Assembly (NCBI GenBank): GCA_026416845.1
Contig: JAOAEL010000002.1
Span: 1 to 42,468, forward strand
Length of the DNA: 42,468 nt
Direction of reading: 5' to 3'
Source: Patescibacteria group bacterium
Lineage (GTDB): Bacteria; Patescibacteriota; Microgenomatia; UBA8517
Below, piece by piece: positions 5,892 through 8,717 of the stretch. A program made the position numbers and the translations under genes. The notes below the pieces were generated by a model, which had not been told where the DNA came from, did no database searches, and was given only the letters and a program-made list of their open reading frames with translations. The stretch's first letter is position 1. Every line of letters begins with the position of its first letter.

Positions 5892-6884
5892 ATGAAAAAA
5901 ATTCTACCTTTGTTAATCGTAATTTTAGCTCCAACTCTTGTTTTGTTTGCTTTATTTTTTTTAGCAAAAAAAGCAATACCTGTTCTGTCAGCCACAGCAA
6001 ATCATGTCGTAATATCAGAAGTGCAAATCGCAGGTAAAACCTCCACAGATGAGTTTGTAGAGCTTTATAATCCAACAAATGAAGATATAGACATTAATGG
6101 ATGGAAATTAGCTAGAAAAACAGCTGCAGGCACAGAACCGATTGATTTAGTCGCTAGCTTGTCAGGCACAATTCAATCCAAAAGTTATTTCTTAATTACA
6201 AGCGAATCTTATGATGGAGAGGTAATTCCTGATGTAATTTACGCAACTTCAAGCGGCAATATTGCAAGCAATAACACAGTCTTATTATACGCAAATCAAC
6301 AAGCAACTATAATAATAGACAAGTTAGGGTTAGGTAGCGCTAATGATCGAGAAACCCAAACAGTTCCTAATCCTCCAGCCAATAAAAGTGTTGAAAGAAA
6401 AGCGCATCAAGGATCCACATCTGAAAGTATGGCTGTTGGAGGAAATGATGAATTTTTAGGAAACGGCGAAGATTCTGACAACAACAGTGCCGACTTTGTT
6501 TCTCGCAACAACCCTCAACCACAAAATTCAAAATCACCAAAAGAACCAGTACCAACACCAACTTTTTCACCTACATCAAGTTTAACTCCAACATTAAATC
6601 AAACACAAACTCCTACACAAGCTCCAACAAATACTCCTACAAATATTCCTACTCAAACTCCAACCCCAACTAGTACAGTAACACCAAGTGCAAACCCAAT
6701 TTCATCTCCTACACTAACTCCAACTTTATCATTAAGTCCCACTCCAACTCCGCCAAAAAATGGTGGCAAGGTAATTGCTGTATTTGCATTTGGCGACAAA
6801 CCTCTTGTGTGCAAAATTGATTATAAAGAAAAATCAACTTTGTTCTTTAAGCTGTGGTTACCAGTAATTTCCTGTTTCAGGTAA
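5892..6884 (+). CDS. Lamin-tail-domain surface protein with Pro/Thr-rich linker
   Basis: Signal/TM N-terminus; HVVISEVQ...EFVELYNPTNEDIDINGWKL (LTD motif); NKSVERK; long (PT)n tract. Confidence 0.8.
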   Translation: MKKILPLLIVILAPTLVLFALFFLAKKAIPVLSATANHVVISEVQIAGKTSTDEFVELYNPTNEDIDINGWKLARKTAAGTEPIDLVASLSGTIQSKSYFLITSESYDGEVIPDVIYATSSGNIASNNTVLLYANQQATIIIDKLGLGSANDRETQTVPNPPANKSVERKAHQGSTSESMAVGGNDEFLGNGEDSDNNSADFVSRNNPQPQNSKSPKEPVPTPTFSPTSSLTPTLNQTQTPTQAPTNTPTNIPTQTPTPTSTVTPSANPISSPTLTPTLSLSPTPTPPKNGGKVIAVFAFGDKPLVCKIDYKEKSTLFFKLWLPVISCFR

Positions 6885-6907: not shown

Positions 6908-6917
6908 AGGAGGTGAT
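6908..6917 (+). promoter_or_regulatory. Strong Shine-Dalgarno site
   Basis: AGGAGGTGAT, 10-nt complement to the canonical 16S 3' end, 5-6 nt upstream of ATG 6923. Confidence 0.75.
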
Positions 6918-6922
6918 TCAAA

Positions 6923-6997
6923 ATGGCAGTAAAGAAAAAAACAATAAAAAAATCAGTGGTAAAAAAAGACAAAAAAACTACCAAGAAAAAAAAGTAG
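6923..6997 (+). CDS. 24-aa lysine-rich micropeptide (MAVKKKTIKKSVVKKDKKTTKKKK)
   Basis: Perfect SD, ATG, TAG stop, then a terminator; 13 of 24 residues are Lys. Confidence 0.7.
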   Translation: MAVKKKTIKKSVVKKDKKTTKKKK

Positions 6998-7016
6998 ATT
7001 TTTTTTAATGATAATT

Positions 7017-7058
7017 AAAACAACTCATATCTAGTTTTTGATTTGAGTTGTTTTTTTT
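7017..7058 (+). terminator. Intrinsic terminator
   Basis: AAAACAACTCA (7017-27) / TGAGTTGTTTT (7044-54) with T8 tail. Confidence 0.7.
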
Positions 7059-7316
7059 ATTATCCTAATCTAATTTTTAGTACTTTAACGTTAATTTATT
7101 AGAACTTTCATTTCTTTTAGTTTTAAAAATTGTAAACAAGTTTTAACAACAAAAAAAGGCATTTTTAAGTCTAAAATTTATGAAAAAATTTGTTAAAAAA
7201 CTTAAATTTAGATACAAAAGGAAACTTATTGTTTTGTAACAAAATAACAGTTGATAGCTAATTTAGAAATAATTTAAACTTAAGATTAGAAAAACTTGAT
7301 TAAGTAAAATCCAAAC

Positions 7317-8717
7317 ATGTCAACAGTTAACAAAAACCTGCCAGATCCTTTACCCTTAAAAAAACTAATAGGACCTAGTTTCATAATATTAGGTATGGGT
7401 CTTGGAAGTGGCGAATTAATTTTATGGCCATATTTATCAGTTAATTTTGGTCTTGGAATAATATGGGCAGCAGTCCTTGGTATTACCCTTCAATTTTTTA
7501 TTAACATGGAAATAGAGCGTTATACTCTGGCTACGGGTGAAAGTATATTTGCCGGTTTGAAAAGGAAATATGGCATTTTCATGCCATATTGGTTTATAGT
7601 TACAACTCTTATACCTTGGATCTGGCCAGGAATTACAGCTTCAGCAGCAACAGTCCTTGCAAAGTCTATAGGGATTGAATACTCCAGAACAATAGGAATT
7701 ATATTACTTTTTGGAATTGGCATAATTTATGGATTAGGAAATATTGTGTATAAAACACAAGAAACAGTACAAAAGGCAATCATATTAATAGGTGTACCTT
7801 TTGTTTTGTTAATAACATTTGTTTCTGCCAAAGCCAAAGATTGGTTATCTCTTGCCCAAGGTTTAGTTGGCAAAGGTGAAAATTATTGGTTCTTACCAGA
7901 AGCTTTGCCATGGGCAATATTTTTAAGTGCGCTTGCTTTTGCTGGTGCTGGCGGCAACTTAAATCTCGCTCAATCGCTCTATGTAAAAGAAAAAGGTTAC
8001 GGTATGGCGGCAAATTCAGGAAATATAACAAATGTACTAAAGAGCAAATCAGCTTCAATCAAAATAGAAGGAGATCCTTTTGTTCAAACCACTAAAAATA
8101 TCAAAAGGTTTAGAATTTGGTGGAAACGTATAAATATTGAGCACTTCATCGTGTTTTGGGCTACAGGAGCTTTTACCATGATCATGTTATCTCTTTTGGC
8201 ATATTCTACAGTTTATGGAACTAGCCAAGTAAATGCAGGTATATCTTTTGTTATAAAGGAAGCAGAGCAAATTTCTAGGTTAGCAAACCCTATGTTCGGA
8301 ATGTTTTTCTTAGTTATAGTAGGAATAATGCTTTTTGGTACTCAATTTAGTGTTTACGGATCAAATGCCAGAATAGCAAGTGAAAATTTAGTATTGTGTA
8401 ACAAAAAGATTTTTAAAACGAGAAATATGTCAAAATACTTCTATACTTTTTTATGGATACAAATCATAAGTGGTATAATTATATTTTTACTTGGATTTGC
8501 CGAACCATTATTCCTTGTCACAATAAGCGGAATTTTAAATGCTTTTGCTATGTTTACATACACAGGACTCATTTTGTATATGAATAAAACTGTATTGCCA
8601 AATTCCGCTAAACCAAACCTATTTCGCACAGTAGCGGTATCTTTTGCCTTTTTGTTTTATGGAGCTTTTAGCTTATTTACAATATATCGTTATCTTGCTC
8701 ATTACATCACAAAGTAA
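7317..8717 (+). CDS. Nramp/APC-superfamily transporter (YcsG-like)
   Basis: About 11 hydrophobic segments; IGPSFIILGMGLGSGELILWP, NMEIERYTLATGE, FAGAGG. Confidence 0.75.
   Translation: MSTVNKNLPDPLPLKKLIGPSFIILGMGLGSGELILWPYLSVNFGLGIIWAAVLGITLQFFINMEIERYTLATGESIFAGLKRKYGIFMPYWFIVTTLIPWIWPGITASAATVLAKSIGIEYSRTIGIILLFGIGIIYGLGNIVYKTQETVQKAIILIGVPFVLLITFVSAKAKDWLSLAQGLVGKGENYWFLPEALPWAIFLSALAFAGAGGNLNLAQSLYVKEKGYGMAANSGNITNVLKSKSASIKIEGDPFVQTTKNIKRFRIWWKRINIEHFIVFWATGAFTMIMLSLLAYSTVYGTSQVNAGISFVIKEAEQISRLANPMFGMFFLVIVGIMLFGTQFSVYGSNARIASENLVLCNKKIFKTRNMSKYFYTFLWIQIISGIIIFLLGFAEPLFLVTISGILNAFAMFTYTGLILYMNKTVLPNSAKPNLFRTVAVSFAFLFYGAFSLFTIYRYLAHYITK

Follow-up and report, generated by a model that had tools for sequence, protein, structure and literature searches.

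The described bacterial systems closest to the gene studied here are tiny ribosomal proteins and lysine-rich proteins of the histone H1 kind. The bS22 protein of Borrelia is encoded by a 93-nt gene that annotation had missed, consists of K/R to 61% and differs by one residue across the genus, and its authors predict more such cases (PMC10618245). In the Candidate Phyla Radiation (CPR), uL30 is absent from all members and bL9 from most Microgenomates (PMC9297842). Among the lysine-rich proteins, Hc2 varies in repeat number between strains (PMC2848022), and AlgP, an H1-like protein with KPAA repeats, acts on polyphosphate granules (PMC9239181). We analysed a stretch of 42,468 nucleotides (the window) from a Patescibacteria group bacterium of the Microgenomatia (contig JAOAEL010000002.1 of assembly GCA_026416845.1), which carries a lysine-rich micro-gene between a strong Shine-Dalgarno (SD) sequence and an intrinsic terminator. 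This window opens a 178-kb contig, of which it covers the first 42 kb; the genome comprises 1.08 Mb in 81 contigs and has 34% GC.

We propose, with a probability of about 0.5, that this is a real micro-gene whose abundant peptide would act on nucleic acid as a free polycation, in the manner of a histone H1 tail or a protamine. Similar unannotated micro-proteins of the (KKxx)n type are spread across the phylum, and the peptide, as one of this class, is not special to this cell.

The micro-gene and its close relatives

The micro-gene encodes MAVKKKTIKKSVVKKDKKTTKKKK, in which 13 of the 24 residues are K (54%) and one is D, for a net charge of about +12; without the initiator Met the peptide reads AVKKKTIKKSVVKKDKKTTKKKK. 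The GGAGG core of its SD sequence lies 9 nt before the ATG. An earlier reading of the window, made from its letters (the sequence-only reading), had reported an SD sequence, a 24-aa open reading frame (ORF) with 54% Lys, a TAG stop codon and a terminator, and all four are in place (Table 1).

An orthologue in the same genus, MAVKKKTTKKSVAKKTKKTTKKKR, has the same length and differs by four synonymous and four conservative codon changes, and its frame passes without an indel across five A7-A8 runs. The SD sequence (100%) and the hairpin are identical in this genome and the surrounding spacer carries indels; the flanking spacer and the downstream intergenic region of the pair align at 72-76% identity with 13-30 gap columns. 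Three genomes of another genus encode an identical 21-aa peptide, MAAKKKAAKKTAKKKATKKRK, where the SD sequence and ORF are 97% identical, with synonymous changes. The flanks in that genus show 75% identity upstream and 53% downstream, and the terminator sequence has been replaced.

Chance is a very unlikely origin of the ORF. The micro-ORF is the only ORF of its genome with at least 20 aa, a K+R content of at least 0.5 and an SD sequence. In an unbiased scan of 80 related loci (~330 kb), the true orthologue was the sole restricted-alphabet, K/R-rich ORF of at least 20 aa. A DNA search of 60 relatives returned the same-genus orthologue as the sole true match, the rest being A-rich noise, and genomes searched with the 24-mer as protein query yielded the same-genus copy only. 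The sequence-only reading had staked its claim on homologous ORFs in relatives; these were found in the same genus and, as described below, in wider Patescibacteria. At the level of sequence, the micro-ORF is conserved under selection, and the stretch is very probably a real protein-coding micro-gene.

With its outer stem, the terminator reaches −19.9 kcal/mol; its z-score relative to shuffles is −6.2, and not one of 200 shuffles is equally stable. The inner hairpin alone gives −15.3 kcal/mol. A simple terminator scan missed this hairpin because its loop exceeds 8 nt. Rfam returned three tRNAs only for the whole window, with no match at the micro-gene locus.

Shine-Dalgarno strength and the wider class

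No 16S gene was found in the contigs of this assembly; the anti-SD sequence was taken from the 16S of the same-genus genome, whose tail two further genomes of the family share. The sequence-only reading had made its case depend on retention of the anti-SD, and the same-genus 16S indeed ends GGATCACCTCCTTTCT, with the anti-SD intact. The extended SD sequence AGGAGGTGATTC forms 12 pairs, one of them G-U, with the 3' tail GGAUCACCUCCU of this 16S. The duplex of −21.4 kcal/mol ranks third against 1179 long ORFs, for which the median best duplex is −4.9 kcal/mol. The other top duplexes belong to two signal-peptide (secreted surface) proteins, two type IV pilins, Hsp20, rplL, rpoA, an RRM protein and small membrane proteins.

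Such sites are rare in this genome. A 4-mer SD core occurs near plausible starts in 15% of long ORFs, against 23% of internal control sites, and AGGAGGTGAT occurs 3 times in 2.15 Mb (both strands of the genome). Among the top 25 SD-antiSD duplexes of the genome, the micro-gene is the sole gene of the window. The sequence-only reading noticed no second strong SD in the 42 kb, and this holds, the other AGGAGG copies of the window lying inside long ORFs or on the wrong strand. Because the genome is SD-poor and the few strong SD sequences that it has precede classically abundant proteins, we infer that the lineage of this Woesebacteria-type (Microgenomatia) genome reserves strong SD sequences for very abundant proteins. 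The argument of the sequence-only reading that a strong SD means high translation gains support, as far as sequence can tell, from the SD-poor genome and from the abundant-protein company of strong SD sequences, and the 24-residue peptide is probably made in large amounts.

Several further strong SD sequences were observed. Sites of the GGAGGTGA type precede about a dozen genes in this genome, TatA also among them. The rpsU gene (bS21; MVLVIKQKGESEDKLIARFKKK...; contig C22:156337-156543) has an AGGAGG SD despite the SD-poor family, and in many other genera (L028, L048 and L051 included) rpsU carries a conserved GGAGGCGA ~8 nt before its ATG. A similarly strong SD precedes rpsU in Bacteroidia, where it is said to serve autoregulation via anti-SD availability. 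In several genera of the family, a strong GGAGGTGA SD precedes a conserved membrane micro-protein of 60-63 aa (...GIGY(L/M)GTDIWLASTQWLLVA...; C33:101778, minus strand; L027, L032, L037). Family f8 of the class (L073-L077) has, behind a GGAGG SD, a uL4 with a Lys-rich N-terminal extension (MPVKKLK...). A K-rich micro-protein of another kind is the 39-aa MAAKKKKKSSLLRILEVTALVGAIAAFLMKFLANEKKKK (L053; G062:C1, ~330381-330457, minus strand), also with a strong SD, in which Lys residues cap a single hydrophobic helix at either end. The 16S genes of two complete genomes of the family (G017:C1:809619-810692; G025:C1:375441-379080) match the Rfam model in several separate pieces, consistent with insertions or introns as known in CPR rRNA genes.

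Protein and hidden Markov model (HMM) searches are blind to sequences of this kind, and DNA patterns were therefore used for a wider search, with the pattern SD, ATG and M-[AP]-[AV]-K-K, after which full ORFs were read from the matching genomes. This returned 34 look-alike genes of 12-71 aa in 33 genomes of 15 Patescibacteria families, all with a GGAGG-type SD, and a hairpin with a U-run lies within 100 nt of the stop codon in 31 of the 32 members scanned. In the class search, the reversed-pattern control gave 4 matches where the pattern itself gave 32; in the phylum search the figures were 0 and 24. The match rate of the pattern, ~4% of genomes, is a lower bound. Genes of the class consist of an SD-led ORF of ~10-70 codons with K/R of at least 50% and a restricted alphabet of small residues, followed by a terminator of their own, and the window micro-gene has all these features.

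Other genera of the same family encode the 24-aa peptides MAAKKKAKPKTAAKRKPAKKGKKK and MPAKKRKTTVKRKTVKRKTAKKRR. The shortest form is the 12-aa MAAKKKAKKKKK of family f48, and the longest a PAAKK-repeat protein of 71 aa in family f155. At a locus of 56% GC, the 21-aa peptide MAAKKKAAKKTAKKKTAKKKR is written with AAG, GCC and GCG codons, every Lys being AAG; the lysine richness is therefore not a by-product of A-rich DNA. One genome holds two copies of unequal length, and within one genus the length varies from 47 to 55 aa by gain or loss of repeats. The composition of 32 members is K 51%, A 16%, T 10%, V 9%, R 7%, P 3% and S 2%, and basic residues recur at lags 1, 4-5 and 8-9. None of the 32 contains E, F, W, Y, L, N, Q or C, and the sole Asp is that of the window peptide, whose one D and one I are its only residues outside the usual alphabet of the class. 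An exact look-up of ten peptides in a collection of 15 billion proteins found none present, and at least these ten are unannotated there. Searches of the literature on Patescibacteria lysine-rich proteins and on CPR SD use turned up no account of these genes.

Candidate functions and gene neighbourhoods

In the reading that we favour, the strong SD would drive synthesis of the 24-residue peptide in large amounts. The peptide has no fold-determining residues, its KK(K) doublets and triplets being spaced by small residues, and with a charge of ~+12 it would bind nucleic acid non-specifically and electrostatically, as a genetically encoded 'polyamine'. The chromosome, and possibly RNA, would thereby be neutralised and compacted in a very small cell. 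By analogy with known polycations, we infer nucleic-acid binding, with the nucleoid as the probable main target.

Several points weigh against this. The genome also encodes HU, and an extra nucleoid protein is not obviously needed; the peptide would then add to the classical nucleoid proteins and not replace them. A protein of 12-15 aa, as some members are, looks short for bridging DNA. The function is plausible from composition and analogy, and homology searches returned nothing significant: Pfam and NCBIfam gave no match at E ≤ 10 for the 24-mer and three orthologues, phmmer against the PDB none at E ≤ 10 for the 24-mer and a 32-mer, and a protein homologue search with a 42-mer no significant match. 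These absent matches are weak evidence, because composition filters, HMMER's among them, suppress low-complexity matches. Universality of the class is unproven, given the rate at which genomes score with the strict pattern. Because the search pattern itself dictated the common N-terminus M-[AP]-[AV]-K-K, the class may be convergent in composition and not one lineage. Finally, translation genes adjoin the micro-gene in some families, which leans slightly towards a ribosomal role: rpmB is convergent to it in family f26, fmt/def adjoin it in some families, and the order serS - micro-gene - secA recurs in two, with secA directly next in f48 and one gene between in f9.

The main rival is a ribosomal protein of the bS22/eL41 type, i.e. 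a hidden, stoichiometric, rRNA-embedded component of the reduced Patescibacteria ribosome (bS22-, eL41-, mS38- or bL37-like), which might offset the missing uL30 or bL9 or the trimmed rRNA. Besides the neighbours just named, it has in its favour the precedent of tiny, very basic, unannotated ribosomal proteins such as bS22 (PMC10618245), the absence of uL30 from CPR and of bL9 from most Microgenomates (PMC9297842), and the strong SD sequences common to rplL and rpsU in these genomes. Nevertheless, we consider it unlikely. The length of 12-71 aa shifts by repeats within a genus where Borrelia bS22 is nearly invariant, the class lacks any anchoring hydrophobic or aromatic residue, and two unequal copies share one genome; all three observations argue against a fixed pocket in the rRNA. 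The micro-gene showed no universal linkage to ribosomal operons, and no bS22 or bL37 model and no PDB chain matched at E ≤ 10, a test weakened by the composition filters.

A polycation directed at another polyanion or cell, namely polyphosphate granules, an anionic membrane or wall, or a host cell (if an epibiont used it as a cell-penetrating or antimicrobial peptide), is a still less probable alternative. The composition would suit any polyanion, AlgP offers a precedent on polyphosphate granules (PMC9239181), and the basic period of 4-5 permits a weakly amphipathic helix. The A, T, V, P and S spacers are, however, less hydrophobic than classical membrane-active peptides require; a signal peptide is absent, neither export nor immunity genes lie in the vicinity, and no conserved link to ppk or polyphosphate genes was seen in the contexts read.

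That the stretch is a non-coding, A-rich spacer or 3' untranslated region, open by chance, with an SD-like motif that serves another purpose or none, is very improbable. AAA-rich frames arise easily on the A-rich coding strand of a genome of 34% GC, and the ORF identity of the same-genus pair (89%) is only moderately above that of its flanks. A chance frame would have to account for an ORF that is unique in its genome and absent from the 330 kb of control loci save for the orthologue, that keeps its frame without indels through slippage-prone A-runs, and whose architecture is found again in 15 families, at GC-rich loci with AAG and CGC codons as well; in the three-genome genus, moreover, the peptide is 100% conserved with synonymous changes between flanks of 53-75% identity.

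We give almost no credence to a leader peptide, in which translation of the Lys-codon-rich ORF would respond to charged Lys-tRNA, set termination at the hairpin and thereby govern the downstream transporter: an SD, a short ORF with 13 Lys codons, a terminator and a same-strand membrane transporter look superficially attenuator-like, but the ORF and 5' arm fold at only −6.8 kcal/mol, by A-U pairs only, against −15.3 to −19.9 kcal/mol for the terminator, the hairpin and the transporter are 260 nt apart with a −10 box directly before the transporter ATG, and the downstream genes differ in every family examined, being unrelated or on the opposite strand. The attenuator is largely refuted because no antiterminator folds and a single one of the 80 transporter loci has the ORF, and with the downstream gene not conserved this model was rejected.

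The features of the locus are collected in Table 1.

Table 1 Coordinates of the micro-gene, its signals and the adjoining genes, as positions in the window.
Feature	Position	Strand	Remarks
Extended Shine-Dalgarno AGGAGGTGATTC	6908..6919	+	shorter form AGGAGGTGAT = 6908-6917
Micro-gene, 24 codons + TAG, encodes MAVKKKTIKKSVVKKDKKTTKKKK	6923..6997	+	ATG 6923, TAG 6995-6997
Intrinsic terminator	7009..7062	+	inner stem 7017-7027 / 7044-7054, U-run to 7058
Outer A-U stem of terminator	7009-7014 / 7057-7062	+	
Upstream gene, Lamin-Tail-Domain (LTD) protein	5892..6884	+	context only; Pfam LTD E = 1.6e-15
Downstream 466-aa polytopic membrane protein (transporter)	7317..8717	+	context only; without Pfam family

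The LTD protein is secreted or anchored, has a Thr/Pro-rich linker and is read in a frame different from that of the micro-ORF. Its gene ends 24 nt before the SD sequence. No terminator lies in this gap, so that the hairpin may here end a two-gene transcript, and the LTD gene and the micro-gene are possibly co-transcribed in this genome. The description of the terminator as the micro-gene's own needs this qualification here; in other genera the gene is clearly stand-alone. We also considered the micro-ORF as a split C-terminal tail of the LTD protein, which was ruled out by the different frame, the own SD and ATG, and the stand-alone genes of other genera.

The downstream 466-aa protein has at least 304 relatives across Patescibacteria, of which the best 80 were compared. 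A K-rich ORF lies near a transporter orthologue at 1 of these 80 loci, the same-genus one, and synteny of the micro-gene with the flanking transporter is absent outside the genus among the 80 best loci. A −10-like TAAAAT (7305-7310) stands 6 nt before the ATG of the 466-aa protein, which suggests that its mRNA is leaderless. The membrane protein is not under micro-ORF control. Many records of metagenome-assembled genomes titled 'uncultured Gammaproteobacteria bacterium' encode close relatives of this transporter with 50-66% identity, and those labels are probably wrong.

Elsewhere in the phylum, other genera have the micro-gene as a monocistronic unit with a separate promoter region and with divergent upstream or opposite-strand downstream genes, and its neighbours differ between families. 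A convergent gene with a PHP_C domain (409-420 aa, EndoQ-like) lies tail-to-tail with it in two families (L105:3276-4505 and L110:3237-4499), and a mannosyltransferase-like membrane protein of the PMT_2 family (PF13231) is the neighbour in another.

Significance and comparison with known systems

As a broader and more tentative proposal, the main macromolecular counter-ion of the cell in Patescibacteria may be an undescribed and largely unannotated class of free polylysine peptides with very high expression. These would amount to a 'polyamine/protamine' made by the ribosome, with a length tuned by repeats, and would coat the nucleoid and perhaps the ribosomes of the ultra-small cells; in a sharper variant, the peptides would be a missing stoichiometric component of the reduced CPR ribosome. 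If such peptides are made at the level that their SD sequences suggest, all protein catalogues lack a product that ranks among the most abundant in a large part of bacterial diversity. Gene callers overlook peptides of this kind on account of their length and HMM tools on account of low complexity, and tryptic proteomics loses them since trypsin cleaves at each lysine. A free polycation like an H1 tail would, if confirmed, bear on DNA compaction and charge balance in ultra-small cells with ~1 Mb genomes, on the stabilisation of reduced ribosomes, and on what the rare SD sequences of SD-poor lineages are reserved for.

Compared with leader-peptide attenuators of the enterobacterial type, the window shares a short SD-led ORF followed by an intrinsic terminator; it differs in that there is no antiterminator and no conserved downstream operon, and in that the terminator follows a complete stand-alone gene. 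The ribosomal proteins bS22 (with eL41 and mS38) and mycobacterial bL37 resemble the window gene in being tiny stand-alone genes of 24-33 aa with ~55-60% K/R that annotation missed (PMC10618245). Among relatives they are, however, almost constant in sequence and length, and they occupy a defined pocket of the rRNA, whereas the class spans 12-71 aa and has no anchoring hydrophobic residues.

Chlamydial Hc2 (HctB; PF07382, NF038052) and the class have in common a very high Lys content, Ala/Thr/Pro/Val spacers, short Lys repeats with a period of 4-5 and a length that varies by repeat number, and the resemblance is one of kind, not homology. Hc2 has 165-237 aa, against 24 aa here and 12-71 aa in the class. 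Members of 55-56 aa stayed below threshold with the Hc2 HMMs, at 12.8 bits where the cut-off is 40 and 11.2 where it is 135. The H1- or protamine-like character proposed by the sequence-only reading is thus borne out in the alphabet, the KKxx periodicity and the variable length; it does not extend to the Hc2 HMMs, whose matches fall far below threshold, and the likeness is one of composition. Other bacterial H1-like, Lys-rich cases are the KPAA repeats of AlgP, the PAKKA tails of mycobacteria and the lysine repeats of Streptomyces TopA. These are tails on folded domains, while the window product is a free peptide with no developmental regulation known; the mechanism expected by analogy with Hc2 and AlgP would be shared, namely electrostatic binding to DNA or another polyanion.

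H1 tails and protamines show intrinsic disorder, and it is their charge that neutralises DNA and condenses it. The C-terminal domain of the eukaryotic linker histone H1 and protamines use, like the class, a restricted K/A/P/T/S/V alphabet. The H1 tail is ~100 aa long on a globular domain and protamines are Arg-rich, so that the window peptide is related to them by functional analogy and not by homology. By this analogy, the class would be a new, free-standing form of known lysine-rich nucleic-acid-binding proteins.
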